Assembly: GCA_963796055.1 (NCBI GenBank)
Contig: CAWCKH010000004.1
Span: 3,072,001-3,136,000, forward strand
DNA length: 64,000 bases
Reading direction: 5' to 3'
Origin: an uncultured delta proteobacterium
Lineage (GTDB): Bacteria > Myxococcota > Myxococcia > Myxococcales > Myxococcaceae
Part shown: piece by piece, positions 18,887-56,286 of the stretch
Layout: every line of letters begins with the position of its first letter
How positions within the stretch are numbered: position 1 is the stretch's first letter
Translations under genes and position numbers: made by a program
The notes under the pieces: model-generated
The model's database searches: none
The model's input: the letters and a program-made list of their open reading frames with translations, nothing else
What the model was told of the DNA's origin: nothing

Positions 18887-19816
18887 ATGCGGCGTGGACG
18901 CACGCACCGGCTGTCGACCGAGCGGGCGGCACGGTTGCGCCTGGCGCTCGACCGGCTGGAGCGGACGTCTCCTCCCCGACGGCGGTTGCCGCTCGACCCG
19001 GTGTCGCTCCCGCATCGCTACTCGGACCCGCGGGACGTGGAGGTCGCCGGGCTGCTCGCGGCCTCGCTGGCCTATGGGCGGGCGGACCTGTTCCTGCCCA
19101 GGGTTTCCCGGCTGCTGGAGGGGATGGCGCCGTCACCGGCGGCGTTCGTCCGGGCGCTGGACGTGGCGGGAGCGCGCGCGCTGCTCTCCGGCTTCGTCTA
19201 CCGCTTCAACGTCGGCGCGGACGTGGCGGTGCTGCTCCTGGGAATGGGGCGGATGCTCGCGCGCCGGGGCTCGCTCGAGGCCGGGTTCGTGGCGGCGCGC
19301 CAGGCGTCGGGTGGCGACCTGCACTGTGCGCTCTCCGGGTTCGTCGGCGAGCTCCGCGAGGTGGACCTGCGGGCCATCGAGCGAGCGTTGGGGAAGACGC
19401 GAGGGCTCGATCATCTGTTGCCAGTCGCTCTGGGGGCTGGCGCCGCGAAGCGGCTGCACCTCTACCTCCGCTGGATGGTGCGGGGGCCGGACGGAATCGA
19501 CCTGGGCATCTGGAAGAAGGTGCCGCCGAGCGCGCTCCTGGTGCCGCTGGACACCCACGTCGCCCGGCTGGCCTGGCGGCTGGGCCTGGTGCGGCGGAGG
19601 ACGATGGGCTGGGCCGCGGCCGAGGACATCACCCGTAACCTCGAGGTCATCGATCCCGAGGACCCGGTCCGCTTCGACTTCGTGCTCTGCCACCACGGGA
19701 TGAGCGGGGCGTGCCCACCGCGCGCGCGGGCAGAGCTGTGTGCCCGGTGCGTGCTCCAGCCGGAGTGCAGCGTGGGGCGCAGGCTCACCCCGGGCTCGGC
19801 CCCGGCTCGGGGCTAG
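18887..19816 (+). CDS. TIGR02757/DUF2400 family protein
   Basis: KRLHLYLRWMVR, PLDTHV, DPEDPVRFDF; C-terminal Cys cluster. Confidence 0.9.
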   Translation: MRRGRTHRLSTERAARLRLALDRLERTSPPRRRLPLDPVSLPHRYSDPRDVEVAGLLAASLAYGRADLFLPRVSRLLEGMAPSPAAFVRALDVAGARALLSGFVYRFNVGADVAVLLLGMGRMLARRGSLEAGFVAARQASGGDLHCALSGFVGELREVDLRAIERALGKTRGLDHLLPVALGAGAAKRLHLYLRWMVRGPDGIDLGIWKKVPPSALLVPLDTHVARLAWRLGLVRRRTMGWAAAEDITRNLEVIDPEDPVRFDFVLCHHGMSGACPPRARAELCARCVLQPECSVGRRLTPGSAPARG

Positions 19817-20346
19817 GCTCCGGTGAGCAGCGCTGCCGCGACCGCACCGGCGCCCGCGACGTCCGGCTCCGTTCCCTGGAGGACGCTCACCTTGACGCAG
19901 GCGTCGCCCCGGGTGACGTAGACCGCGTCGGCGGTGGTCCAGCTGGGAGCTCCGAGCGCCAGCGACACCGGAACGCCCGCCGCGGCGGTGCACTGCATCT
20001 CGGCCTCTCCGCGGTCCAGCCAGGTGCGGATCTCCAGTCGCAGCTCGACCCCCGCTCCGTTCAAGGTCCAGACGGTGGACGCGCTGAGCTCGGCCCCGGC
20101 GGGTTCCGCGAGGGCGACGCCGAGTGCGGTCTCGAGCGCGAAGCGGTCGAGCGCCAGCGCCCGGCTCGGCGCCCAGGGTCCGGGAAGCACGGCCTGGGTG
20201 CCCGGGGACGGGTCGACTCCGCTTCCCGGGTCGTCGGTCGTGGTGGGCGAGGTGGAGGGAGCGTCCGTGCCCGAGCCGCAGGCCAGGACGAGCGCCAGCG
20301 TGGCGACCAGGATGGGACTGCGCCCTGCGGTCAGGCGGCGAGCCAT
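19813..20346 (-). CDS. Lipoprotein of unknown function (Hcp cassette partner, copy 1)
   Basis: Lipobox VLAC; paralogue of 52378-52905. Confidence 0.8.
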   Translation of the reverse strand: MARRLTAGRSPILVATLALVLACGSGTDAPSTSPTTTDDPGSGVDPSPGTQAVLPGPWAPSRALALDRFALETALGVALAEPAGAELSASTVWTLNGAGVELRLEIRTWLDRGEAEMQCTAAAGVPVSLALGAPSWTTADAVYVTRGDACVKVSVLQGTEPDVAGAGAVAAALLTGA

Positions 20347-20347
20347 C

Positions 20348-20923
20348 TCACCGAGCGTTACGGCCGGCGGACGGCGAGATGACGTTCACCTTGTTGGACT
20401 TGACGTCGAAGGTGACCGAGTCCGCCGGATCGAAGACCTCCCAGCGGACGGACTCGAAGATGAGCTGGACCTCGTCGACCAGCCGCGTGTCGAGGCTCCG
20501 CTCGTTGAGGCCCACCACGATCACCCCCTGGAGCGTGATGCGGTAGCCGAGGACGCCTTTGCCGTCCTGAGCCTGGTCGGAGAACTCGATCACCACCGTC
20601 TTGATGTGCTCGCCGGTCAGCAGTGCCTTGAGCAGCTTGAGGCTGGACGGTCCCTGGACCTTGTTGAAGACCACCGGTCCAAGGGTCGCCTTCCCGGTGC
20701 CGCCGCCACTGCCACCGCCGGTCGTCGCCGACTGTCGCCAGGTCTCCGAGAAGTTGAACCCCTCGATCTGGCCCTCGTGGCCCTTGACCCTGGACTCGCC
20801 GGTCACTCCGTCGACGGTGACGAAGAACGGGCCCGACTGGACATCGTCGCGATCGTGCGCGCGTGCAGCGGAAGTGTGGACCAGAGCGAGCGCGATGACC
20901 GCCGAGGCGAGCATTCTCTTCAT
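20348..20923 (-). CDS. Hcp (T6SS tube) family protein with N-terminal signal peptide, copy 1
   Basis: VDGVTGES..GHEGQIE, GGGTGKA, K..SS.KL, GEHIKTV, YRITL, EVQLIF; leader MKRMLASAVIALALVHTSAARA. Confidence 0.85.
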   Translation of the reverse strand: MKRMLASAVIALALVHTSAARAHDRDDVQSGPFFVTVDGVTGESRVKGHEGQIEGFNFSETWRQSATTGGGSGGGTGKATLGPVVFNKVQGPSSLKLLKALLTGEHIKTVVIEFSDQAQDGKGVLGYRITLQGVIVVGLNERSLDTRLVDEVQLIFESVRWEVFDPADSVTFDVKSNKVNVISPSAGRNAR

Positions 20924-21144
20924 TCGAGACCCCCACACGTCGACCGACGCCGGCGACGGAGCGGCGGACTTTGCCACTGCCCGCTCCCGCACGAGGAGTG
21001 GGTCCGTTTCGCCTCGTCCTCGCTCACACGGGCCCACCGGTGGGGAGGAGTGTGGATGCAACGCCTCGGCGCGGGCAGGTCTACTCGAGAACGGGGGAAG
21101 GCCGGTCCCCACGGTCGCGAAGTGCGAGCGAAAGGGGAGAGCCA

Positions 21145-21399
21145 GTGAAGAGCTGGTGGATTGGAAGTGTCGCGGCGCTCGCCGTCGCGCTGGCTGGATG
21201 TGGCTCCGGGGCGAACTGCAAGGACGCCTGCGACAAGCTTCAATCGTGCAGCCTGAACTCGTCCGGTCTGTCGTGCGATGCGAGCTGCGGCAGCCCGGAT
21301 GACACCTGTGCCGGATGCCTGAACAGCACGAGCTGCGCGGACATCACCGCGGGCTCCTGCGCCTCGAGTTGCACCCAGGCGACGTTCACCCCGAAGTAG
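21145..21399 (+). CDS. Small Cys-rich lipoprotein
   Basis: Lipobox LAGC followed by 10 further Cys; RBS GGAG upstream. Confidence 0.75.
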   Translation: MKSWWIGSVAALAVALAGCGSGANCKDACDKLQSCSLNSSGLSCDASCGSPDDTCAGCLNSTSCADITAGSCASSCTQATFTPK

Positions 21400-21438
21400 C
21401 CGGCCCAGCGCGCCGCTAGGAGCCTGTAGCTCATAGCT

Positions 21439-21520
21439 GACTGCGGCCGCCCGGACCTCGCCGACTGCGGCCTACTTGGCGACACCCTGACCCGGATCTC
21501 GACTGCGGCCGCCCTGACCT
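21439..21520. repeat. Short intergenic direct repeats
   Basis: GACTGCGGCC at 21439, 21463 and 21501; copies 1 and 3 extend to about 20 nt. Confidence 0.6.
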
Positions 21521-23246
21521 AGTCCAGGACGCGCCCCAGCCGCACGTCGTCGGGGTAGGGGATGGGGTCCGGCTGCCGCCCGGCGCGGATGTCCTCCTGC
21601 CGGGCGATCCACCACGCCGGGTCGAGCAGCTCGCCGTGCATCTCCACGAACAGCTCGCGCAGCCGCCCCGGCGGGAAGAGGAAGCGCAGGAACTCCTCGG
21701 GGAACACGTCCCGCACCCCCACGTGGAACCAGGGCTCGGCGGACGACTCCTCGGCGTCGTCGCGCGCGGTGGGCATCCGGCGGAAGTTGACCTCGGTCAA
21801 GAGCGAGATCTCGTCGTAGTCGTAAAAGACCACCCGCCCGCGCCCGGTCATCCCGAAGTTCTTGAGCAGGAGATCTCCGGGGAAGATGTTCGCCTCGGCG
21901 AGGTCGTGGATCGCCCGGCCGAACTCGCGTACCCCGTGGCTCTGCTGCGCCGGGTCCGCGTGGTCGAGCCAGAGGTCGAGCGGCGTCATCCGGCGCTCGA
22001 CGTACAGGTGCTTCAGCACCAGTCGATCCCCCTCGCGCTCCACGTTGAGGGCGCAGGAGCGCTCCAGCTCCTCGATGACCGCGGGGTGCATGCGCTCGGC
22101 AGGGAACAGCACGTCCGAGTACTCCAGGGCGTCGGGGAGCCGCCCCACCCGGTCGTGGTACTTCACCAGCAGATACTTCGCCCGGACCTCCTCGTGGGTG
22201 ACCTGCTTCGGCGGGGGGAACTCGTCCCGGATGACCTTGAACACCCAGGGGAACGAGGGGAGGGTGAAGACCATCATCACCATCCCGCGCGCGCCCGGCG
22301 CCGGCACGAAGGCGTCGGTGGAGTGCTTCAGGTTCGATATGAGATCTCGGTAGAAGAGGGTCTTGCCCTGCTTCTGCAGCCCCACCGAGGTGTACAGCTC
22401 GGCCTTGGACTTCCCCGGCATCAGCTGGTTGAGGAAGGCGACGTACTCGGCGGGCACGTCCATGTCGACGATGAAGTAGGCCCGGGAGAGGCTGAACAGC
22501 GCGGCCAGGTGCTCGCCCTTGAGCAGCAGCGCGTCCACGTACAGCCCGGCACCCGACGGCGCATGCCGGATGCAGGCCACGAACGGCGTCTGGTGGTTTC
22601 CGTTCAGCAGCCGCCCCACCACGTACGCTCCCACGTCGCGGAAGAAGAGCGAGGACAGCAGCTGCACCTGGAAGTTGAGCTGGCGCTCGCGCTGGCCGGG
22701 CAGATGCTCGCGGAAGGTGATCAGCACCTTGCGGAGGTCGCGCCGCAGGTTCTCGAAGGGGACCGACAGCCCCAGGCTCCGGGCGATGGCGGTGAAGGTG
22801 GACAACAGGTTCCTGGCCGTGGGGTACCAGGACCTCCAGGTCACCTCGTCCGCCTCGATGAACTCGGTGGCCACCGCCTGGCGCCAGAAGATGTACTCGT
22901 TCCGGTAGTAGGTGCGGTCGAGCACCCGGCAGGCGACGGAGTTGTAGAAGGTCTCGGCGCACTCCGGCCGCTTGTGCTCGTAGAGGAGGCCAATGAGCGC
23001 CTGCTTCACCTGCGGCCACAGGGTCTCGTCGGTGCGCGCGTCCGGATGGAGCCGCAGGACCGACTCCACGGACTCGCGGACCCGCGCGTCGTAGGTCCCG
23101 ATCCACAGCCGGTTCAGCGCGTGAGCCCCCTCGCGGTCGCCCCTCTCGAAGCAGGCCTTGGCCGCAGCGCTCTGCGCCCGGAACTGCGCCCAGCGCTTCT
23201 CGAAACCGTCCAGGATGGTGCGGGCGATCGCCTGTGGGGTGCTCAT
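21519..23246 (-). CDS. aceK: Isocitrate dehydrogenase kinase/phosphatase
   Basis: ECAETFYNSV, GLQKQGKT, APGARGMVM, HDRVGR, IFPGDLLLKNFG, FYDYDEI. Confidence 0.96.
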   Translation of the reverse strand: MSTPQAIARTILDGFEKRWAQFRAQSAAAKACFERGDREGAHALNRLWIGTYDARVRESVESVLRLHPDARTDETLWPQVKQALIGLLYEHKRPECAETFYNSVACRVLDRTYYRNEYIFWRQAVATEFIEADEVTWRSWYPTARNLLSTFTAIARSLGLSVPFENLRRDLRKVLITFREHLPGQRERQLNFQVQLLSSLFFRDVGAYVVGRLLNGNHQTPFVACIRHAPSGAGLYVDALLLKGEHLAALFSLSRAYFIVDMDVPAEYVAFLNQLMPGKSKAELYTSVGLQKQGKTLFYRDLISNLKHSTDAFVPAPGARGMVMMVFTLPSFPWVFKVIRDEFPPPKQVTHEEVRAKYLLVKYHDRVGRLPDALEYSDVLFPAERMHPAVIEELERSCALNVEREGDRLVLKHLYVERRMTPLDLWLDHADPAQQSHGVREFGRAIHDLAEANIFPGDLLLKNFGMTGRGRVVFYDYDEISLLTEVNFRRMPTARDDAEESSAEPWFHVGVRDVFPEEFLRFLFPPGRLRELFVEMHGELLDPAWWIARQEDIRAGRQPDPIPYPDDVRLGRVLD

Positions 23247-46969: not shown

Positions 46970-47051
46970 GCCCAGGTGGTGGAACTGGTAGACACACCAT
47001 CTTGAGGGGGTGGCGCCGAAAGGTGTGCGGGTTCGAATCCCGCCCTGGGCA
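46970..47051 (+). tRNA. tRNA-Leu(GAG), canonical
   Basis: GCCCAGG/CCTGGGC acceptor, loop TTGAGGG, long variable arm, GGTTCGAATCC. Confidence 0.95.
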
Positions 47052-47129
47052 CTCTCAGTCCCTCGGAACTGCAGAGCAAATCTCGGAGCCGGTGGTCGAT
47101 TGACCCCTCGTTGACCCTGACTCCGAGCC

Positions 47130-47245
47130 CTCCGCGGTCCAGTGCTGATCCAGCGCCGCCACTGCCTCTCGCCGGCTGTCCGGAGACAGGTGCGAGTAGC
47201 GCGTCGTCATCTCGATGGTCGCGTGCCCGAGCAGCTCCTGTGGCT
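47130..47245 (-). mobile_element. Tyrosine integrase C-terminal remnant
   Basis: QELLGHATIEMTTRYSHL (box II His and catalytic Tyr) directly after the tRNA. Confidence 0.85.
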
Positions 47246-47297
47246 TAGGCATCGAACTCGCGGCCGCTACCATCCCTTCCTCTCCTCGTGGACCGTC

Positions 47298-47589
47298 ATG
47301 CTCTTCGCCGTGCTCTTCACCGACAAGACAGATCGTGCCGAACTCAGAGCCGAGCATTCTCGATGCGCACATTCGGTGGATAGCCGAGCACCAGGACCTC
47401 ATTCTCGTGGCTGGTTCGCTTCGTGCCGAGCCACAGGAAGTGCCCAAGGGAGGGCTTTGGATCGTCGAGGCAGAGTCAAAGGCTGCAGTGATGGAATTGA
47501 TGAAATCGAACCCGTTCTTCACCTGCGGCCTGCGCCAAAGCTTTGAAGTTCTGCACTGGAGCAAGCGCTTCAGGACCGAAAGGCTCTAG
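47298..47589 (+). pseudogene. YciI family gene, frameshifted
   Basis: MLFAVLFTDK..RAEH, extra base near 47358, then LDAHIRW..AGSL..GGLWIVEAES..NPF. Confidence 0.75.
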
Positions 47590-47665
47590 TCTGATGCCGG
47601 GCTCGAGGAGCTTGCCGTGGAGCGAACGGACCCAACCTCCGAACAGCGCGGTGTTCAGGTCGTAG

Positions 47666-47818
47666 AGGCGCGCCCGACTGCCTTGCCTCTGGCTCGACGT
47701 GCTCCGGACCAACGCCGGTGCGCGCCGGTTCTACCATCTCCACGGGTTTCAGGTCCGGGCGGAGCTGCCGTTCTCCACGGATATCGCCTATCCGGGATTG
47801 CTGGTGATGGTCCGATAG
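47666..47818 (+). pseudogene. GNAT acetyltransferase C-terminal fragment
   Basis: LWLDVLRTNAGARRFYHLHGF (motif B); in-frame stop upstream, no start. Confidence 0.7.
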
Positions 47819-47856
47819 CATCCGGGCAGGGGACGGGTGAGCTGAAGAGGAACCTC

Positions 47857-48012
47857 ACTCGGCTCTCCGCTGACGCCGAGAGACGCATCGCCTCGCTGGT
47901 GCTGGGCAACCTGAACGAGGATGGCTACCTCAAGCTGCCTGACGTCGAGGGCGACTCGCTCATCCGTCGGGCCAGCAAGGCGGACGTGCCCATGCTGGTG
48001 GCCGAGCGGACC
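47857..48012 (+). pseudogene. Internal fragment of sigma-54 (RpoN) core-binding domain
   Basis: ERRIASLVLGNLNEDGYLK resembles RpoN I.GNLD.DGYL. Confidence 0.65.
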
Positions 48013-48218
48013 ACCATGGTTTCGACAACGACAATCACGCCTCGCTACGACAAGGCCGCGGCCCAGCTGGCGTGGCGGCACTTGGTTTCCTGGGCATTTC
48101 GCCACAGGGGCGGCCATTCCCCAGCGATTCTCATCGCCGAGCTCCCCACCCCGTCTTGACTCCACGTGGTGACGGGCGTACCTACCTCACCGCAATCGAA
48201 GTCGGAGCAGCGCAGACG

Positions 48219-48389
48219 ATGAACACTCGAACCCAAGTGCTGGCAGTCGCCGCGGTGGTCAATGCCCACCGGCGGATCGGCTCGCGCTCGTGCGGGTGGG
48301 TGTCGTCCGCCGTGCCCTCGATCGAACTCGCACTGGCGATGAGCCAGCGCGGAGGCGATCGCGGCACACCCGACTTCATGCGTCGCTGA
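48219..48389 (+). CDS. Putative 56-aa leader peptide of the tRNA array
   Basis: GGAG 11 nt before ATG; stop lies 26 nt before the terminator; last codons overlap the antiterminator strand. Confidence 0.5.
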   Translation: MNTRTQVLAVAAVVNAHRRIGSRSCGWVSSAVPSIELALAMSQRGGDRGTPDFMRR

Positions 48390-48415
48390 TCCGGAACATC
48401 GGATCGGGGCTCAGG

Positions 48416-48455
48416 AGGCCGGGTGACCATCAGGGGTCCCCGGCCTTTTTCTTTC
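48416..48455 (+). terminator. Intrinsic terminator/attenuator upstream of the tRNA array
   Basis: AGGCCGGG(T)GACC-ATCAGG-GGTCCCCGGCCT, a 12-bp stem, followed by TTTTCTTT. Confidence 0.8.
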
Positions 48456-48473
48456 CTGGACACCCCACCGAAT

Positions 48474-48541
48474 AGGCCGCGCGCTGGGCGCAGGTGGGTC
48501 TCCAAAGCCTGCCGACGAGGGTTCGATTCCTTCACGGCCTG
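48474..48541 (+). tRNA. tRNA-Trp(CCA), reduced D-arm
   Basis: Loop CTCCAAA, GGTTCGATTCC, AGGCCG/CGGCCT acceptor. Confidence 0.75.
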
Positions 48542-48660
48542 CACGCCCCCGTCCCTGCAGGGGCTCTGAAGCCTGACGGCGCTGTTCTGTGACATCGAAC
48601 AATAGAAGCGACATTCGGGCTACCCGTCTGCCCTGGCTTGCTCCCCTCCATCCGCTCTGA

Positions 48661-48732
48661 TGGGGCGTCGTCTAGTCGGCAGGACCCTGGGCTCTGACCC
48701 CAGCGAGGGAGGTTCGACTCCTCCCGCCCCAG
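48661..48732 (+). tRNA. tRNA-Gln(CTG)
   Basis: TGGGGCG/CGCCCCA acceptor, loop CTCTGAC. Confidence 0.9.
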
Positions 48733-48751
48733 CAATCTGAAGCAAAGTGAA

Positions 48752-48824
48752 GGCGCCGTCGGCCAGTGGTCAGGCCACCAGACTCTCGATCTGGGAACGG
48801 AGGGTTCGATTCCCCCCGGCGCTG
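48752..48824 (+). tRNA. tRNA-Glu(CTC)
   Basis: CCAGA-CTCTCGA-TCTGG, GGCGCCG/CGGCGCT acceptor. Confidence 0.88.
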
Positions 48825-48829
48825 CTCAT

Positions 48830-48913
48830 GGCGGCCGACAATCAATGGCCGATCAGCGGGTTGTGACCCCGTGGGGCGAGAGCCCCGAAGGAGTTCGATT
48901 CTCCTCGACCGCC
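48830..48913 (+). tRNA. tRNA-His(GTG) with long variable arm
   Basis: GCGGG-TTGTGAC-CCCGT; G-1:C73 pair; GGGGC-GAGA-GCCCC variable hairpin. Confidence 0.75.
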
Positions 48914-48918
48914 CTGAT

Positions 48919-48990
48919 GCCTCGTTGTCCCTCTGGTGAAGGTCTCCGGCTGTCTACCGGACGAGACGGGTTCGATTCCCGTACGGGGCG
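48919..48990 (+). tRNA. tRNA-Asp(GTC)
   Basis: TCCGG-CTGTCTA-CCGGA, G73. Confidence 0.8.
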
Positions 48991-48992
48991 CT

Positions 48993-49064
48993 GGGCCGTG
49001 TGTCACTGGGGTGCAGCTCGGTCTCGCACACCGAGCGTGCCGGGTTCGATTCCCGGGCGGTCCA
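48993..49064 (+). tRNA. tRNA-Ala(CGC)
   Basis: Loop CTCGCAC; G3:U70 and A73 identity elements. Confidence 0.82.
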
Positions 49065-49083
49065 CACGTCGTTCTACGTTGCT

Positions 49084-49152
49084 GCCCCGTCCAGCGGATC
49101 TGGACCCCGCTCTCCGAAGGCGAGCGAGACCGTTCGACTCGGTCACGGGGTA
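49084..49152 (+). tRNA. tRNA-Arg(CCG), reduced D-arm
   Basis: Loop CTCCGAA, GCCCCGT/ACGGGGT acceptor. Confidence 0.72.
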
Positions 49153-49158
49153 CTGCCG

Positions 49159-49227
49159 GCCCCCATCGGTGGAACCGGACTCGCGGCTACGAACCGTGAT
49201 GAGAGCGTTCGATTCGTTCTGGGGGTG
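49159..49227 (+). tRNA. tRNA-Arg(ACG), reduced D-arm
   Basis: TCGCGG-CTACGAA-CCGTGA, GCCCCCA/TGGGGGT acceptor. Confidence 0.75.
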
Positions 49228-49232
49228 CTTCG

Positions 49233-49304
49233 CGTGGCGTCGCCAGGTGGGAAGGCAGCGGTCTCATGAACCGCCGATCGCAGGTTCGACTCCTGCCGCC
49301 ACGA
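49233..49304 (+). tRNA. tRNA with CAT anticodon (Met; Ile2 not excluded)
   Basis: GCGGT-CTCATGA-ACCGC, CGTGGCG/CGCCACG acceptor. Confidence 0.85.
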
Positions 49305-49307
49305 TAT

Positions 49308-49380
49308 GCCGGACAGTTCACCTGAAGGTGATGCCGCTCTCACACGGCGGAGGCGCAGGGTTTGATTCCCTGGTCCGGTA
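49308..49380 (+). tRNA. tRNA-Val(CAC), atypical D-arm
   Basis: CCGCT-CTCACAC-GGCGG; T-loop TTTGATT; A73. Confidence 0.75.
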
Positions 49381-49387
49381 CATCAGA

Positions 49388-49461
49388 GCCGAGGTAGCCC
49401 AACCGGTAGAGGCACTGGTCTCAGACACCAGCAAGTGAGGGTTCGAATCCCTCTCTCGGTA
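49388..49461 (+). tRNA. tRNA-Leu(CAG) with short variable loop
   Basis: CTGGT-CTCAGAC-ACCAG, 5-nt variable loop CAAGT, GGGTTCGAATCCC. Confidence 0.85.
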
Positions 49462-49526
49462 CAGCGGCCGGAAAGCCAGGTCCGTTGTCCAATCTTCCCT
49501 GGGGTCGAATCCTGTCCGACTCGCAC

Positions 49527-50000
49527 TCAGGGCTTCTCCCGCTCGTCTCGAGCGCGCGCCTCGGCGATCGCTCTCACATCGTCAAGGTATCGTCCTGCGT
49601 GAGGGCCCGTGGGGAGCGCCTCCTGGGCCCGGCGACAATCGGCCGTTCGCCCGTACCCGGTGATCGCCGAACTGAGGGCCAGAGTCCCCAAGGCGGTCAT
49701 TGTCGCCCCGATCGCGATTGCCTCTCCTGAGCTCGGGCCGACGCACCAACCGGTGCAGCTCCCGCTGGCTGCACCTGCCACGATCCCAAGCACGCCAACC
49801 CCGATAAGAGGAACCGCGAGAAAGGTGTCGACAGCCGGGACGGCATTGGAGGACGTGCACTCCAGCTTCGTCGGCTCCGGCTGCTCTGTCTCGTGGGCGG
49901 AGATCTCGGCTGAATGAGGTCCGTGAACGAAGGCGTACGAGCAGCCGGAGTTGCCCAGGGTCAAGAGCATCACCCCCGCAATGCACACCGCTCTCGCCAT
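49527..50000 (-). CDS. Hypothetical lipoprotein/membrane protein
   Basis: Signal ending SGC, two hydrophobic helices, several Cys. Confidence 0.65.
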   Translation of the reverse strand: MARAVCIAGVMLLTLGNSGCSYAFVHGPHSAEISAHETEQPEPTKLECTSSNAVPAVDTFLAVPLIGVGVLGIVAGAASGSCTGWCVGPSSGEAIAIGATMTALGTLALSSAITGYGRTADCRRAQEALPTGPHAGRYLDDVRAIAEARARDEREKP

Positions 50001-50479
50001 CACCGAGGACGACGTTCGACAGTCGTGTTCAACATCTCCGTCGACACCCATGACTCACCCCCTTGGTTCGACGCGGCGGTCCTCGAAGAATGCCGCACGA
50101 AATTCTGAACAGCTTCATGTTGCATTCAATGGACCGCAAGGCGGACTCCGTAGTCTGCGCGTAGCCGCCGTCCCCTCGTGCGAGGCACTGCACACCCGTG
50201 CAATCAATTGCACGAGATACATGGCAGATGAGGGCAGAGTTGAGCGTGCTTGAAACCCCACTTACATGCGTGCGCGCGGCGTCCTCGAGGAGGAGGCCGT
50301 CCCGGACACCGCGCTCGACGTCCTGCAGCTCGAAAGCATCCAGGTGTCGCGGAGCGGGGGGCCGGCACCTCACCAGGAGCGTGCGAGAGGAGTACGCTCT
50401 CGGAGTCGCTGAGCCACGGCGCGGAGCGCACAGCCCCCGAGCGCCACCTGCTCGGGGGCGCGGTGCAGGACGGCTGTGC

Positions 50480-51244
50480 TCACTGCGCGCCGCTCGCCTC
50501 CATGTCGCGGGCGACCTGGAGCGCGATGGCCTTCACCCGTTCCTCCTCGGGACAATCGCCATCGATGTGTCCTTCGCGGACGCGCTCCAGCTCGGTGAGG
50601 GCGGCGGCGACGTTGCCTTCGCGCCACAGCGTCTCGGCGAGCCAGGCCATCGCGCGGAGGTTCCGCGGGTCATCAGCGAGGGCGTGCTGGTACCAGGCGG
50701 CCGACTTCGCCAGGCTCCGCTTCGGCCAGGGCATCTCGAAGAAGTAGCGGCCCTTTGCCAGGCGGGGCCCCTGGTGCTCGAACCGGGGGTCGAGCGCGAG
50801 CGCCCGCTCGAGGCGCTCGTTGAACTTGGAGTCGAGCCCCTCGCCGAGCGCGCTCAGGATTCCGGCCCCGCTGCAGTACAGGCCGATGCCCACGGCGGCG
50901 AAGTAGTGTCCGGCGACCCACTCGGGCTTTGCTCGCGAGAGCTGGTCCCCGACATCCCAAGCCTCGCGGCCGAGCCGCTTCCTTTCCTTGGGGTCGGTGA
51001 CGCTGTCACCGACCCAGAGTGCGAACCGCGCCTTCCAGAACATGCGCTCCGGAGCGTCGGGGCGCTCGGCGAGCGCAGCCGTCGCCAGGCGCAGCGCTTC
51101 GTCGGCCTTCGCCGGGTCCCTGCGCTCGGCCCAGAGTGAGGCGAGTCTGGCGACCTGTCCGGCTGCACGGACGGGCTCGCGTGCAGCCTCCTCGGCGAGT
51201 CCCAGGCCGGGGCAGAGCAGAAGGAGCAGAGCAACCCAGCGCAT
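50480..51244 (-). CDS. Secreted TPR-like helical protein
   Basis: Signal MRWVALLLLL; GHYFAA..G.Y, ALALDP.F..GP..GRYF..PWP. Confidence 0.7.
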   Translation of the reverse strand: MRWVALLLLLCPGLGLAEEAAREPVRAAGQVARLASLWAERRDPAKADEALRLATAALAERPDAPERMFWKARFALWVGDSVTDPKERKRLGREAWDVGDQLSRAKPEWVAGHYFAAVGIGLYCSGAGILSALGEGLDSKFNERLERALALDPRFEHQGPRLAKGRYFFEMPWPKRSLAKSAAWYQHALADDPRNLRAMAWLAETLWREGNVAAALTELERVREGHIDGDCPEEERVKAIALQVARDMEASGAQ

Positions 51245-51341
51245 CGCGTGTGAAGGAGAGCACGCGGGCGCCCAGATGAGAAGGACCGCGGGCCCGTGAC
51301 CCCCTTCCTGTCCAGGCGGTACTGCACGCTGAGCGCCGGCA

Positions 51342-51605
51342 TCACCCCGGTCGCTCGAGCGCCATGCGCACGGCAAGGACTCCGCCCATCGACTGCGCAA
51401 TGACGGCGCTCGGTTCGACTGGCAGCTGCTCCACGAGCCACCTGAAGAGATCGTCCAGTGACTCGATCGTGGGATCGACCGGGCAGTCGCCAAAGCCCGG
51501 ATAGCCGAACACGTGGTTGCGACCGAGGTCAGCCAATCTATCGGCGACAGGGCGCCAGAAGGACGCGGTTCCACCAGCGCCGGGCAGAAACACCTGAGGT
51601 GACAT
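51342..51605 (-). pseudogene. Alpha/beta hydrolase, C-terminally truncated
   Basis: FLPGAGG, PGFG, AQSMGG nucleophile elbow, then stop at 87 aa. Confidence 0.75.
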
Positions 51606-51812
51606 GCAACGACCTTATTAGCGGAGACCGGGCACGGTGGTCCGTTCCACGAACTTCCGGACGAAGTTGACCCTGCAGCTACGCTCACCAGAGGGAGGGT
51701 CGGACACATCCACGGCAGTCGTGACAACCGTCGTGAGTACCAGGCTGTCCGCGCGATCTGGCCTGCAACGTTCGACGTCGGAAGGTTCCGGAGTGGCGGA
51801 GGTCACGCACGC

Positions 51813-52370
51813 ATGAAGCGGTCGTTCGTTTCGGCGGTTCTGCTGCTCAGCTTGGTCCACGGCTCCACGGCACTCGCCGACGATTCCGGCCTGACCTTCG
51901 TCACCGTCGATGGAGTCCAGGGCGAATCCACGCGGACGGGGCACGAGGGCCAGATCGAGGCCTCGAACTTCTCCCAAACCTTTCGCCTGGCGGTGGCCAC
52001 GGGCGGAGCAGGCGGCGGCGTCGGCAAGCCGACCCTCGGTCCGGTGGTCTTCGAGAAGGCCCAGGGAGCGGCCAGCATCAAGCTCCTGAAGGCGCTGCTC
52101 TCCGGTCAGGCCATCGCGAAGGTGTTCGTCGACTTCTCCGCCCAGCAGCCCGATGGCAAGAGCGCTGTCACCTACAGGATCACGCTCCTGAACGTGATGG
52201 TCGTGGGCCTCAACGAGAAGAGCGTCGATGGCAGGCTCGTCGACGAGGTCCAGCTCACGTTCGAGTCCGGGATCTGGGAAGTCTTCGACCCGGCCGACTC
52301 GACGAGCTTCGACGGCAAGACCGGCAAGGTGAACGTGATCGCGCCTTCCGGCAGCCGCAGCACCCGGTGA
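51813..52370 (+). CDS. Hcp (T6SS tube) family protein with N-terminal signal peptide, copy 2
   Basis: VDGVQGES..GHEGQIE, GGGVGK, YRITL, EVQLTF; leader MKRSFVSAVLLLSLVHGSTALA. Confidence 0.85.
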   Translation: MKRSFVSAVLLLSLVHGSTALADDSGLTFVTVDGVQGESTRTGHEGQIEASNFSQTFRLAVATGGAGGGVGKPTLGPVVFEKAQGAASIKLLKALLSGQAIAKVFVDFSAQQPDGKSAVTYRITLLNVMVVGLNEKSVDGRLVDEVQLTFESGIWEVFDPADSTSFDGKTGKVNVIAPSGSRSTR

Positions 52371-52377
52371 GGCGATC

Positions 52378-52905
52378 GTGAACGGCTGGTGGAGCACCGT
52401 TCCCGCGCTGGTCGCGGCCTCGGCAGTGGTCATCGCCTGCGGCACAGGGACGACAGCGCCGTCCCGATCGCCCTCGAACGCGCAGCCGGTCCCGGAGGAC
52501 ACGCCCCCCAGCGACGCGCTCGAGACCCCCGGCCCCTGGGCTCCAAGCCGTGCGCTCCAGCTCGACCGGTTCGCGCTCGAGACTGCCCTCGGGGTCGCCC
52601 TCGTCGGACCCGCGGGGGCTGAGCTCGGCAGCTCCACCCGATGGACGCTCGCCGGCGGGGACACCGAGCTCCGCTTCGACGTGCGCACCGGGTTCAATGG
52701 CGCCGAGGCCGAGGTCCAGTGCCGCGGGCTCGCGGGCGACGGAGCGGTGCAGTCCCTGAGCCTCGGCACCCCGGTCTGGAGCGCAGCGAACGACGTCTAC
52801 TTGACCCAGGGGGCGTCCTGCATCCGCGTGCGCGTGACCCGGAGCGGCCGCGCCGACCCCGCCGGTGCAGCTGCGGTCGCCGGAGCGCTCGTGCGCGCCG
52901 ACTAG
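52378..52905 (+). CDS. Lipoprotein of unknown function (Hcp cassette partner, copy 2)
   Basis: Lipobox VIAC; shares PGPWAPSRAL.LDRFALETALGVAL with copy 1. Confidence 0.8.
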   Translation: MNGWWSTVPALVAASAVVIACGTGTTAPSRSPSNAQPVPEDTPPSDALETPGPWAPSRALQLDRFALETALGVALVGPAGAELGSSTRWTLAGGDTELRFDVRTGFNGAEAEVQCRGLAGDGAVQSLSLGTPVWSAANDVYLTQGASCIRVRVTRSGRADPAGAAAVAGALVRAD

Positions 52906-53274
52906 ACCGAGGTGGTGCGCACGTCGCGAACGGCCCAGCCAATCGCAGGCCGCAGGCCCAGCGTCGCCCGGTCCTGCGAAACGCCGACGAATCCGCCGAG
53001 CAGTTCCATCGCGGTGCTCTCGGTCAGGTACTGCCAGGTGAAGCCCACCCGGGACAGCCCGGAGGGGAAGTCAGTGGCCTTGGGCCCCTCACCAAACTGC
53101 TGCTCGTGCATCTCGCGCCAGCTCTCGACGTAGGCGTTTCGCTGCCACCCATCCTGCTGGAGATACGGAAAGAGGACGTTGATCCAACCGGTCACCCAGG
53201 GACCTCCGGAGACCTCGCTCAGCTTGTAACGGGTCACCCGGGGTCTGGACGTCCGAGACGGAGAAAGTGATCAT
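52902..53274 (-). pseudogene. DUF4419-like gene with large internal deletion
   Basis: N-terminus MITFSVSDV joined out of frame to SGGPWVTGWI..FPY..PSG..GGFVG..RPAIGW. Confidence 0.6.
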
Positions 53275-53394
53275 GGTCACCTCCGCAAACCCAAGGGCTG
53301 CCGGGCGGGCTCGAAACGCCGAGCCCCGAAGAAACAGGCTGCGCTTACGCCCGGGCCAGGAAGGGTACAAGCCTAGGGTAGCAGATTCTCGAAC

Positions 53395-54411
53395 CTAGCC
53401 TGGAGCCGCACGCGGCAACGAACTCGGCGATGATTCGCGCCGCCACGCTTCGCGGGGCATGGCGCTCGCGAGTAGGAGAACGGCGCCACAAAACATCAGC
53501 GTATCTGCGAGGTAATTGAGGCCGTCGTCGAGGCTCGCGCGATGGACCACTCCGATCGGCACATAGACGACCAGCACCAGCAAGAGCACGGTCAAGCCAA
53601 GCCACGTTGCGGCTGCGCGGGCCTTCTTGCCAACAAGCAAGAGGGAACCAGCGCATGCGTAAACCACGGCGGTCAGATAGGTCCAAATGGCGTGTCCGTA
53701 GACGTAGTGCGGAGTCAAGCGGTTCAGCGGAACGCCGGGAAGGTGATCGCCGTGCATGAATTGTTCGAGGCTGAAGACCAGCACGGGTAGGGCGACGAAG
53801 TATCGCCCAATTGTCCCGAGGACGTCCCTGCCGCGCCACGGTGCCGTGAGGCTGGCTGCCAGCGCCAGGGCACCACCGCTGAAGGAGAGTTCACGCAGCG
53901 CGAGCGTGAGCGCAAACCGGTCTCGCGGGTCTTGTGCCCAGGCTGGGACGTCCATCAGCACCACGAAACAAAAGAACGTCAAGGCAAGCAAGGCTGCCGC
54001 AAGCCGTGCCTGAATCCTTGTCACCAGGCTCAGCGCGGCGGCAATGAAGCAAGCACCCACGAAGTACGCCCAGAATTCATGCCACGGAATCCACGCCGGT
54101 ACGATGGATGCGATGGCATCCGTCCGCGTGAAGTGTTCTGTGCCAAATGCCGCGAGTGGCGCTGCGAAAAACAGTGGCCCCACGAGAAGCAGCTTTTCGG
54201 CTCCCCGCGCTCTTGACCAGTCGTGACGAAGAAGAGTGGCAACGAACCAAATCGCAAGAACAACTCCGCCGACACCATACGACCAGATCACGTCGCTCGG
54301 AATCACGAGGATCGTCGACGATCTCAGCAAGCTACCGCTCACGACGACCCCCTTCGCTCCTCTCACCCCCGAGCTCGAGGCGATGTCCATCGGCGACTTG
54401 CTCAGGCACAC
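53395..54411 (-). CDS. DoxX-like polytopic membrane protein (start uncertain)
   Basis: FGTEHF..IVPAWIPW..FWAYFVG; internally duplicated halves. Confidence 0.7.
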   Translation of the reverse strand: MCLSKSPMDIASSSGVRGAKGVVVSGSLLRSSTILVIPSDVIWSYGVGGVVLAIWFVATLLRHDWSRARGAEKLLLVGPLFFAAPLAAFGTEHFTRTDAIASIVPAWIPWHEFWAYFVGACFIAAALSLVTRIQARLAAALLALTFFCFVVLMDVPAWAQDPRDRFALTLALRELSFSGGALALAASLTAPWRGRDVLGTIGRYFVALPVLVFSLEQFMHGDHLPGVPLNRLTPHYVYGHAIWTYLTAVVYACAGSLLLVGKKARAAATWLGLTVLLLVLVVYVPIGVVHRASLDDGLNYLADTLMFCGAVLLLASAMPREAWRRESSPSSLPRAAPG

Positions 54412-54532
54412 CGGAGGGCGGGCACTTACTCAGCCGGGCCGGCGTCGTCCAGGGGCTACGTCAAGAAGTCCGTCAGCGGGGCTGCGACCGCAGCGAAGTG
54501 CAGCGCCTTCAGCCGGAGAATCAGAATACTTC

Positions 54533-55858
54533 TCACGGAAATAGAAACTGCGGAACGTAGCTGAGCCTCAGCGTGATCGCACGACCTTCGTGGAACGCGG
54601 CCATGGAGGCGTCGTACTGTATCGTGGGGCAAAACTGCGCTCGACCCTGCATTGCAGCATTCTGCAGACAACGTAGACCCAGAGCACGGCGTCGTTCTTC
54701 GGCACCGTACGCCGAGTCATAATCGTAGTGCGTCAAGAACGGACCCAGGAGCGTCAGGTAGAGAGCCACGGCAGCAACGCCAGAAAAGCGTGACGGGAGG
54801 CGAGTGAGGAGATTCCTCCATACAAGCAGACAAAGCGGCAGGACCAGGAAAGTAGCGACGTACAAGTATCTGCCGCTCAGAGCACCACCAACTCCGGCCC
54901 AAGCCCGGGCGTGACTGATCGAGCCCAGAGCGAGCAACAGACAGGACGTCCAGGAGAGAAGAGCCACCGAATGGAGCCTCTCGGGGGCCCCCGCCGCCTT
55001 GAGCCTCCTTGCCTCGAGGCAGCCAACCCCAAGAAGGAGAACCAGCGCAGCCCAGCCTATCATTGGTCGTGGCGTCGAAGCGCCGATCCCCAGCCCTCCT
55101 GCGACCAAGGAACCATAATGATCCCAGAAGAGTGAAGAGGTGAGGGACGTCACCTCTTCACGCTGACCGGGATAGCCAACAAACCAGAGAGAGACTCCGA
55201 GTAGATAAATGATGGCATGGGTGGCAGCGCGCCGTCGGCTCTCAGGGCGCCATGCAGCGACGAAGGCCAGCAGGATCGGGTACGACAGCGAGAGAATCAG
55301 GCCCATTCCCATGGCATAGGTTGCCGCAAGCGCAAAAAATGGCGCGAGGCGACCAATGCCACCAGCCTTCAACTCGAACGCCAAGGCAAGCATCGAGAAC
55401 AGAAGACCAAACGTCCACTGCCCGTTGCTTGCGTGAAGATGAACTTCCGCCGGAATCGATGTGGCAAATAAGGGGAGCAGATGAGCAAGCCTGATGGCAA
55501 AGGCGCTCTCGAGCCATCGGATCATGCTCATTATAGTAAGGACGAAGAGGGTGAAATTCAGTGCCACGTGAACGTTGATGTTCCAGGCGCAGACCCGATA
55601 GAGCGTCCAAATTGATAAGTTGGTCCAGACGGTTCGATGAACGTTGTGGAAAGAAAAGAGCCATTTGAGATCCAGGTCTGAGTTGAGCCCACCGGGATCC
55701 AAGGCGGCCCAGTCGTCCCAATGCAGAACATTGACCGAGTGGCCCAGGACAGCCATTCCGTCGAGCGCGAGGAGAGAGATGCCCAAGAAGAGCGCGGCGA
55801 GGCGTACTGCGCGCTGAAGCAGCCGGACGCGGGCGGCCCCCGGGGAGGAGAGCCTCAC
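54533..55858 (-). CDS. Polytopic membrane protein, lower GC (possible GT-C glycosyltransferase)
   Basis: WDDW, HNVHR, SGRY motifs; many TM helices; atypical codon usage. Confidence 0.65.
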   Translation of the reverse strand: MRLSSPGAARVRLLQRAVRLAALFLGISLLALDGMAVLGHSVNVLHWDDWAALDPGGLNSDLDLKWLFSFHNVHRTVWTNLSIWTLYRVCAWNINVHVALNFTLFVLTIMSMIRWLESAFAIRLAHLLPLFATSIPAEVHLHASNGQWTFGLLFSMLALAFELKAGGIGRLAPFFALAATYAMGMGLILSLSYPILLAFVAAWRPESRRRAATHAIIYLLGVSLWFVGYPGQREEVTSLTSSLFWDHYGSLVAGGLGIGASTPRPMIGWAALVLLLGVGCLEARRLKAAGAPERLHSVALLSWTSCLLLALGSISHARAWAGVGGALSGRYLYVATFLVLPLCLLVWRNLLTRLPSRFSGVAAVALYLTLLGPFLTHYDYDSAYGAEERRRALGLRCLQNAAMQGRAQFCPTIQYDASMAAFHEGRAITLRLSYVPQFLFP

Positions 55859-55860
55859 GG

Positions 55861-56286
55861 AAGCCCCCCGCTCCCGGTCTGATCGAGGAGTCGACCGGGC
55901 AGAGCAGCGGTGGAGACGAGGAGGCCACGCTGGAGATTCCTCCACCGAGGACGCTGCCCGATCACCCGCGTCTGGTCGTCCGACCCGAGGAGGCGCTCAC
56001 CGGGGAGGCGGTGGAGATCGTCGGAGCGGTGCTCGCCGAGAAGGGGCTCCTCGCCGAGCGGACGCCCCGCCCGCCCACGGTCTGGCCTGCGCTGGGTCGC
56101 TTCCAGGACTCGCAGGGGCTCGCTGCCACCGGCTTTCCCGACCGGCTCACTCTCCACCGGCTCGGGGTGGATCCGTCGCACGTCCTCCTGCCGCTCGGCC
56201 GAAGAAACGGCTCGTCGGCGCCTCCGACGAGACAGCCGGTGAAGAACAGCTCCGGATTGGTGTCGAAACGTCACCCTGGCGGTTAG
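55861..56286 (+). pseudogene. Peptidoglycan-binding domain protein, 5'-truncated
   Basis: ALGRFQDSQGLAATGFPDRLTLHRLG; open frame from 55861 with no start or signal peptide. Confidence 0.55.

Follow-up and report, generated by a model that had tools for sequence, protein, structure and literature searches.

A signal-peptide Hcp and an adjoining predicted lipoprotein form a selected gene pair in a Myxococcaceae genome in which no type VI secretion sheath or spike was detected

The stretch of DNA analysed here (the window) comprises 64,000 nucleotides of contig CAWCKH010000004.1 (positions 3072001-3136000, assembly GCA_963796055.1) from an uncultured member of the Myxococcaceae. It carries two copies of a cassette made of H, a gene encoding an Hcp with a signal peptide, and L, an adjoining lipoprotein gene; we refer to them as H1/L1 (copy 1) and H2/L2 (copy 2), and to the source genome (5.53 Mb in 7 contigs, 98.5% complete) as G000. 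H belongs to the Hcp fold family and is not TssD, the Hcp of type VI secretion systems (T6SSs), and the H–L pair is a real, selected and previously undescribed variant. Copy 2 belongs, on phylogenetic evidence, to a mobile lineage and was acquired horizontally. We propose, giving this reading about an even chance of being right, that the two genes form a T6SS-independent module in which hexameric rings of exported H likely form in the cell envelope and are likely held there by lipid-anchored L, with copy 2 acquired horizontally.

Two copies of the gene pair

H precedes L in both copies, which lie 30.9 kb apart on opposite strands, and the two genes are separated by 1-7 bases. An earlier note, made from the letters of the window, had described copy 2 as an intact pair repeating the gene order of a pair about 31 kb away on the opposite strand; both open reading frames (ORFs) of copy 2 are indeed open, and copy 1 lies on the minus strand (Table 1). 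Every motif named there is present in the alignment of both pairs: the A-x-A signal end, the lipobox (VIAC / VLAC), PGPWAPSRAL.LDRFALETALGVAL, QC, [A/S]C and the tail WEVFDPADS..FD.K..KVNVI.PS. The Hcp identity, judged by eye at roughly 60%, is 64% by global alignment (119/185), and L1 and L2 share 53% (90/171). A genome-wide search found exactly two copies of each gene in G000 and no third.

The H protein

H1 and H2 score 85.3 and 75.7 bits against Pfam T6SS_HCP (PF05638, cut-off 23.5) and match no other Pfam family; the two TIGR03344 scores of the pair of proteins, 34.2 and 48.2 bits, both lie below its cut-off of 58.9. The H family profile matches Pseudomonas aeruginosa Hcp1 (PA0085, PDB 1Y12) at E 9e-19, and the AlphaFold monomer model of H1 (pTM 0.72) matches PDB Hcps at E ~4e-12 in Foldseek. 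H is thus predicted with good confidence to fold as an Hcp. The family is sharply bounded, with 88 matches in the full-length range at 44-100% identity, and the closest sequences beyond it are ordinary Hcps of the cytoplasmic type at 27-37%. Among these nearest outgroups is a subfamily of 174-178 aa (P0202-P0229) that has no signal and carries a conserved insertion of ~17 residues with a QYPLSF motif.

Signal peptides were called by sequence pattern alone. A signal-like N-terminus was found by a crude rule in 81 of 90 H proteins and in both window copies; of the nine failing the rule, four have a signal by eye, four start at the domain and one has an internal deletion. The suggestion in the earlier note that the signal peptide is no accident is therefore upheld across the family.

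For comparison, 87 H proteins were set against 21 cytoplasmic-type Hcps, a heterogeneous set. Relative to the latter, the Gly-rich loop of H (residues 64-81) is of full length and strongly conserved (G73 0.98, G77 0.94, K78 0.97). According to the accessible text of two papers, an extended loop of this kind is required for ring formation and stacking of Hcp (PMC4650826; PMC10696396). H has also gained a short, polar tail of ~11 residues, in which Pro184 is conserved at 0.99 and a terminal Arg is found in 88 of 90 proteins. Across 56 complete H copies the terminal codon is CGG in 24, CGC in 29, CGA in 1 and CGT in 1, while one copy has a premature stop. Because four different codons encode this Arg, which also persists in trailing H copies with no gene behind them (see below), the constraint acts on the protein, and the residue cannot be a mere by-product of the ribosome-binding site of L. 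A shared secretion tag was looked for as well and not found: the tail/N-terminal pattern, run over 23,708 open frames, matched only H1 and one spurious frame and missed H2.

The strand register of H was anchored on five inner-ring residues of Hcp1, listed in the accessible part of PMC8262886 as A29, S31, T59, S115 and T122, which gave 14 lumen-facing positions. Their conservation is 0.83 in the 87 H proteins against 0.36 in the 21 cytoplasmic-type Hcps, whereas the opposite face of the same strands differs little (0.78 vs 0.73), as does the whole domain (0.72 vs 0.65). The difference in lumen conservation between the two sets gives p=5.5e-6 and that between the lumen and the rest of H p=0.019, both obtained after the per-column values had been seen. 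The surface that is most variable in the comparison Hcps is thus the one that is fixed in H.

The L protein

Neither L1 nor L2 matches any Pfam or NCBIfam family, and no PDB sequence matches L. A single one of 83 members matches DUF3558, weakly (E 0.22), and DUF2020 is the first ESM Atlas match (0.89), which we treat as a lead only. The 83 sequences share a lipobox, a Pro/Thr/Ser linker of ~30 residues, a nearly invariant GPWxPSR motif and two invariant Cys. Gly follows the lipobox Cys in all 60 placed L starts; under the Escherichia coli lipoprotein sorting rule, Gly at position +2 directs a lipoprotein to the outer membrane.

The model of L1 has pLDDT >90 over residues 91-170 and consists of a helix, an antiparallel sheet and a C-terminal helix. 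Its best structural matches are the extracellular domain of PknH (4ESQ; Z 8.4, root mean square deviation 5.7, 107 aligned residues) and DIP2269 (3V7B; 8.3, 4.1 and 99), followed by TiME (7CU8, Z 7.0), DcrB (6E8A, 6.7) and Tsi3 (4LUQ, 6.1), all of which we take to share one Mog1p/PsbP-like fold. L is accordingly modelled with a predicted PknH/PsbP-like fold, and the fold alone shows no function. No long L fusion was found among 1.84 billion representatives; the single long match (P0142) is a DUF5979 repeat protein. Distant relatives of L stand at 38-43% and 21-27% identity, and four weak L-profile matches beyond the genus reach the signal and linker only.

Linkage, distribution and selection

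The earlier note had inferred that the two genes are inherited together under purifying selection, and both parts of this are supported: neither of the refuting outcomes named there, dN/dS near 1 or a lack of co-occurrence in other genomes, was observed. H occurs in 9 of 13 genomes of the genus and L in the same 9, neither gene is present in the other 4, and no genome is discordant. Among 57 metagenome loci found via L, H lies directly upstream in 51, and the other 6 begin at most 100 bases from a contig end; these loci partly repeat the same strains, and 40 H/L pairs remained after dereplication at 97% H identity, with one locus (L046) excluded. L stands directly behind 10 of the 12 genomic H copies, the remaining two being the last genes of H-L-H arrays. 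H distances correlate with those of L, at Mantel r=0.70 for n=40 and r=0.56 for n=15.

The trailing H copies (L095:6554-7141 and L097:6753-7328) form a divergent branch of their own with a distinct tail, SLNAPKPGA.TR. It is possible that they contribute to mixed rings.

Searches of 401 genomes of the phylum, scoring the best 8 or fewer candidates per genome, matched the H profile at E<=1e-25 in 7 genomes, all in this genus, and gave full-length L-profile matches in those 7 only. In these searches the pair did not turn up outside a single Myxococcaceae genus. The relatives that carry names are uncultured Myxococcaceae or Myxococcota assemblies. A search of sequencing runs yielded 11 DNA runs containing the DNA, mostly soil and peat metagenomes, and no RNA run, a result that bears in neither direction on expression. 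Among four of these runs, near-identical pieces span the left island junction and the H2-L2 junction in 3 runs of one study, which is possibly the source sample and so not counted as independent.

Codon-based maximum likelihood (ML) gave dN 0.23, dS 1.5-1.8 and ω (dN/dS) 0.13-0.15 for H1 against H2, with ω=1 rejected by likelihood-ratio test (p ~1e-15). For L1 against L2 dS is saturated, and ω=1 is again rejected (p<1e-12). Comparisons of copy 2 with six members of the lineage to which it belongs gave ω values of 0.08-0.15 (H) and 0.10-0.26 (L). NG86 estimates (ω ~0.50 for H, ~0.55 for L) were set aside in favour of codon ML; we attribute the gap to a GC content at third codon positions of 0.90, which compresses synonymous distances.

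T6SS and phage-type machinery

TssB, TssC, VgrG and PAAR have no match in G000, and neither do the phage tail sheath (PF04984) and spike (PF05954); the positive controls of both searches were matched. The gp19-type tube family (PF06841) has no match either, but no positive control matched it. Of the 13 genus genomes, 4 contain TssC and 5 contain VgrG. Both are absent from six of the nine cassette carriers, among them all five that are at least 90% complete, and two genomes with a T6SS have no cassette. G000 encodes two secretins.

No viral contig encoding H was found, and the matches to phage tubes are weak and at the level of fold only. PADLOC returned nothing meaningful, with one match at E 0.003 over 33 residues. 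Two other genomes of the genus encode stand-alone cytoplasmic-type Hcps with a 'GVCEP' tail (L099:4425-4871 in G008 and L100:1552-2112 in G002) and have no TssC/VgrG match.

Genomic context and origin of copy 2

Copy 1 occupies a slot between aceK and a DUF2400 gene. All 8 relative genomes concerned have the cassette next to DUF2400 in this slot, and aceK flanks it opposite DUF2400 wherever the contig reaches that far (7 genomes); in G003, ECF-sigma-like, CHAT-like and kinase-like genes (named by eye) occupy the aceK–DUF2400 slot instead. The alleles in this slot share 45-76% (H) and 47-67% (L) identity with copy 1, against 76-88% for AceK and 82-92% for DUF2400. Their distances show no significant correlation with those of DUF2400 (n=15; H r=0.055, p=0.35; L r=0.15, p=0.13). 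This pattern would fit the exchange of H-L alleles as a unit.

Copy 2 lies in a strain-specific island. In agreement with the tRNA-linked island described earlier, synteny with relatives breaks at the 3' end of tRNA-Leu(GAG) (47052) and restarts at ~56260. Five of 12 relatives have both island flanks on one contig; their gaps measure ~0.17, 0.4, 3.0, 4.6 and 4.8 kb, compared with 9.2 kb in G000, and the cassette is absent from this position in all five. The decay that the note had ascribed to the flanking genes holds in part. The two nearest neighbours are gene fragments, and after the tRNA there is a remnant with a motif resembling the C-terminus of a tyrosine integrase; the other island ORFs look whole, among them one each for a TPR, a DoxX-like and a membrane protein.

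Two further observations concern the island itself. A tRNA array at 48474-49462 contains 8 tRNAs according to ARAGORN and 4 above the Rfam cut-off; one piece of ~76 bases matches a relative (G010) among the matches listed, and the array looks like mobile-element cargo. The fragment 47871-48080, without a Pfam match, resembles part of sigma-54 (RpoN), and pieces of ~140 bases similar to it occur elsewhere in G000 and in most relatives.

Ten metagenome loci share 79-91% (H) and 70-81% (L) identity with copy 2, and the flanks of the copy 1 slot are never present at these loci or at copy 2. Only the cassette and ~100-180 upstream bases are common to this lineage, and at least six different contexts follow downstream. 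At one of these loci (L053) the cassette lies in a site which in G000 is empty, and no target-site duplication was seen there in comparison with the empty site. Copy 2 and the members of its lineage (seven placed in trees) form one branch in both the H and the L tree (support 100/99), beside slot alleles of other lineages. A clade of H1 and H2 of G000 was rejected by the approximately unbiased (AU) test on the H tree (p-AU 1.4e-47), which disposes of a recent duplication of copy 1 within this genome. The separate branch and the rejected clade together identify copy 2 as a xenologue, so that, as judged from the trees, copy 2 is a horizontally acquired member of the mobile lineage. The earlier description of a second, diverged copy was right as to an intact and diverged pair, but not in the sense of a duplicate made in this genome.

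Proposed mechanism and alternatives

In the mechanism that we propose, H and L are made from the closely coupled genes described above. H would be exported and cleaved and L lipidated, as the motifs predict, with the +2 Gly pointing to the outer membrane. Folded as predicted for an Hcp, H would then form rings, which we infer because the ring-forming loop is of full length. The conserved lumen, which in the Hcps of T6SSs is a variable effector pocket, may now be a fixed polar site that binds one ligand. The likeliest ligand would be L itself, bound through its PsbP-like domain of ~13 kDa or through PGPWxPSR on the flexible linker; otherwise, one external molecule could be bound. The outcome may be a tethered structure of the receptor or adhesion type, either periplasmic or at the surface. 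The distribution of the module suggests that it is accessory and swapped between strains as a unit, sometimes in extra copies. A complex prediction with 3 H and 1 L gave 0.01, 0.55 and 0.28 in three runs; the median is under the 0.32 mark, and the prediction is taken as evidence neither way.

Several observations weigh against this proposal. About 8 residues of the C-terminal hairpin are deleted in H relative to cytoplasmic-type Hcps. The heterogeneity of the 21 comparison Hcps inflates their variability, an effect that comparison with the opposite face reduces without abolishing it. The stoichiometry is not fixed: H-L-H arrays, whose trailing H has no L of its own, occur in 2 of 9 genomes and an H-L-L(partial) array in 1 (G002), and in G004 a frameshifted L stands beside an intact H. 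The first 10 residues of L2 contain no Lys or Arg, which is shared by only 3 of 60 placed L starts; judging by sequence, this uncharged n-region could possibly impair the export of copy 2 and may be a sign of weakening. The fold assignment of L rests on middling Z values, and DIP2269, TiME and PknH rank high in Foldseek without any of them reaching E<=0.001. Two of the 9 carriers do have a T6SS and a third has VgrG. Finally, the weak correlation with DUF2400 may stem from the short internal branches and little tree signal of the latter and not from allele swapping.

Rings need not be the final form. H could be the subunit of a Sec-exported nanotube or ring stack without sheath or spike, self-assembling beyond the cytoplasm, which L would nucleate and anchor and whose rings the C-terminal tail would clamp. 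The retained loop, the gained tail and an analogy to sheathless phage tubes speak for such an arrangement; in phage SPP1 the C-terminal residues are flexible without inter-ring contacts, as stated in the accessible part of PMC10034513. The structure might be a surface appendage or a periplasmic conduit domesticated from the T6SS tube, with swappable strain alleles serving myxobacterial contact or recognition. We consider it unlikely. A step further down in probability stands an arrangement with no rings at all, in which exported H, as a monomer or small oligomer, would bind L 1:1 through its conserved sheet face and act as a periplasmic sensor or inhibitor. Its model is HilE, an Hcp homologue described in the accessible text of PMC10696396 as monomeric, with partner binding modelled on the barrel face opposite the helix; this goes against our proposal. 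The partner-binding face of HilE is the face fixed in H, and the extracellular sensor domain of PknH is the top fold match of L. However, the loop of HilE is shortened while that of H is Gly-rich and of full length, and no signalling membrane protein accompanies the cassette in the copy-2 contexts listed.

Periplasmic Hcp rings could also serve as decoys that absorb incoming T6SS cargo effectors or disturb phage tail contact, with L as an immunity-like helper. A decoy would suit the patchy, mobile and fast-diverging distribution, which is typical of conflict genes. Cargo effectors bind the Hcp lumen (accessible part of PMC8262886), most carriers have no T6SS of their own, and the fold list of L includes Tsi3 (Z 6.1), SciW (Z 5.0) and the PldA-PA3488 complex (Z 4.1). 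Yet a lumen that soaks up many effectors would be expected to diversify, whereas the lumen is the most fixed surface of H; the fold links lie in the common range of the tool, and PADLOC offers no meaningful match. We hold a decoy to be just as doubtful as the ringless pair. A toxin–immunity pair, with H as a secreted antibacterial protein (e.g., a pore- or tube-former) and the downstream lipoprotein as its cognate immunity protein, appears very improbable to us. The gene order of a secreted protein followed by a lipoprotein, the co-divergence of H and L, the one H-L-L array and the PsbP-like fold common to L and Tsi3 would agree with it, but H has no toxin extension beyond its ~11-aa tail and G000 no T6SS delivery machine. 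Moreover, the extra H copies without their own L and the intact H beside the frameshifted L of G004 do not sit well with it, and orphan L arrays were not found elsewhere in the 13 genus genomes.

The view that the pair works for a T6SS, or did so in the past, and is kept through drift or hitch-hiking on islands, is largely refuted and the least probable of all. Its attraction is that the nearest outside relatives are ordinary cytoplasmic-type Hcps and that a T6SS exists in 4 of 13 genus genomes. Against it stand the strong purifying selection in genomes without sheath or spike, a signal peptide that would take H out of the cytoplasm, where tubes assemble, and the fact that the presence of T6SS and that of the cassette do not track each other.

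Comparison with known systems

With the T6SS Hcp/TssD (PF05638) exemplified by Hcp1, H shares the fold and a Gly-rich loop of the GGGAGK type. It differs by its signal peptide, a genome without T6SS, a lipoprotein neighbour and a TIGR03344 score under the cut-off, as well as by the shortened C-terminal hairpin, the tail ending in Arg and the fixed lumen face. Like H, HilE of Salmonella is an Hcp fold outside T6SS with a sheet face that likely binds a partner (accessible text of PMC10696396), but it acts as a regulator in the cytoplasm, is monomeric and has a short loop, whereas H has a predicted export signal and a full loop. PEP-CTERM Hcps also send an Hcp domain to the envelope; unlike them, H has no PEP-CTERM or transmembrane anchor and would be anchored via a separate lipoprotein. 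In the part of a large Hcp survey that was accessible (PMC8262886), PEP-CTERM Hcps were filtered out without comment.

Other signal-bearing Hcps are a signal–collagen-like–Hcp protein (P0217) and two proteins, L101:3913-4455 and L102:3877-4476, of G047, a genome from a different genus of the family. Exported Hcps are thus not unique to this pair and have arisen elsewhere too. The two G047 proteins have Cys near both ends, and no L-like neighbour was noticed in their ORF lists.

The predicted fold of L is that of the Mog1p/PsbP-like envelope proteins PknH, DIP2269, TiME, DcrB and Tsi3, at 5-13% identity and with no sequence-level match. TiME forms envelope rings and tubes (accessible part of PMC8378821), so the fold of L can itself form envelope rings. 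In the literature listings covered, mostly of freely accessible papers, we found no report that pairs one of these Mog1p/PsbP-like proteins with an Hcp and none that describes an exported Hcp accompanied by a lipoprotein; nor did our searches turn up a function described for exported Hcps.

Hcp is treated as the hallmark of T6SS, and the label that these proteins carry in the source databases is 'T6SS secreted protein Hcp' or 'tube protein Hcp'. Here purifying selection keeps an Hcp family that has an export signal and is tied to one partner gene, in genomes without T6SS, which makes an hcp gene alone an unsafe basis for inferring a T6SS. Should our proposal hold, the tube fold of the T6SS would have another function, in the cell envelope. 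The two-gene module would offer a minimal, testable example, with two natural cognate pairs in one genome.

Feature coordinates and minor observations

Table 1. Coordinates of the two gene pairs, the island and neighbouring features (positions are those of the window)
Feature	Position	Strand	Basis
H2, 185 aa, N-terminal signal peptide and Hcp fold	51813..52370	+	open intact ORF; PF05638 residues 29-156, 75.7 bits
H2 signal peptide (predicted, Sec/SPase I) of 22 aa; begins basic, has a hydrophobic core and ends in A-L-A	51813..51878	+	pattern only
H2 C-terminal tail, ~11 aa, conserved Pro and terminal Arg, not in cytoplasmic-type Hcps	52335..52367	+	alignment
L2, predicted lipoprotein, 175 aa, GTG start; Pro/Thr/Ser linker, then predicted PknH/Mog1p-PsbP-like domain, two invariant Cys	52378..52905	+	intact ORF, alignment, fold of paralogue L1
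L2 lipobox VIAC (Cys21), +2 Gly	52429..52440	+	sequence
PGPWAPSR peptide at end of L2 linker, candidate H-binding motif	52528..52551	+	G56 P57 W58 P60 S61 R62 nearly invariant in 83 sequences
Leader upstream of H2, moves with copy-2 lineage; likely promoter and ribosome-binding site	51679..51812	+	matches of L053, L063, L074, L090 start at 51679-51709
H1, signal-peptide Hcp, 191 aa, copy 1 in genus-wide slot	20348..20923	-	ORF, Pfam, profile, model
L1, partner lipoprotein, 177 aa, copy 1	19813..20346	-	ORF, profile, model
Strain-specific island carrying copy 2	47053..56260		synteny breaks; GC 0.60-0.68 in 8/9 one-kb bins vs 0.71 for the contig
tRNA-Leu(GAG), left island border	46970..47052	+	tRNA search
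Remnant resembling tyrosine-integrase C-terminus, approximate limits	47100..47250	-	translation; overlapping ORFs without Pfam match
Truncated alpha/beta-hydrolase, left neighbour of copy 2	51342..51605	-	Pfam Abhydrolase_6, profile 2-84 of 217
DUF4419 C-terminal fragment, right neighbour of copy 2	52902..53237	-	Pfam profile 196-303 of 303
Small Cys-rich predicted lipoprotein, 84 aa, divergent from H1	21145..21399	+	ORF; no Pfam match

The small Cys-rich lipoprotein gene divergent from H1 is found beside many slot alleles (64-81% identity), is missing at some and never stands beside the copy-2 lineage. In the intergenic region between it and H1 (20924-21144), the boxes GCGTTGCATCC, GAGG..GACCCAC and GTGGCA are kept in most of 40 leaders and are candidate regulator sites, as suggested by this conservation. 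A sigma-54 promoter in the conserved leader was considered and, on inspection by eye, not supported. At 21434-21534 the window contains one copy of a dispersed, REP-like repeat of ~85 bases, to which G000 has 88 matches spanning 60 bases or more, often arranged in tandem; the repeat is found in relatives too.

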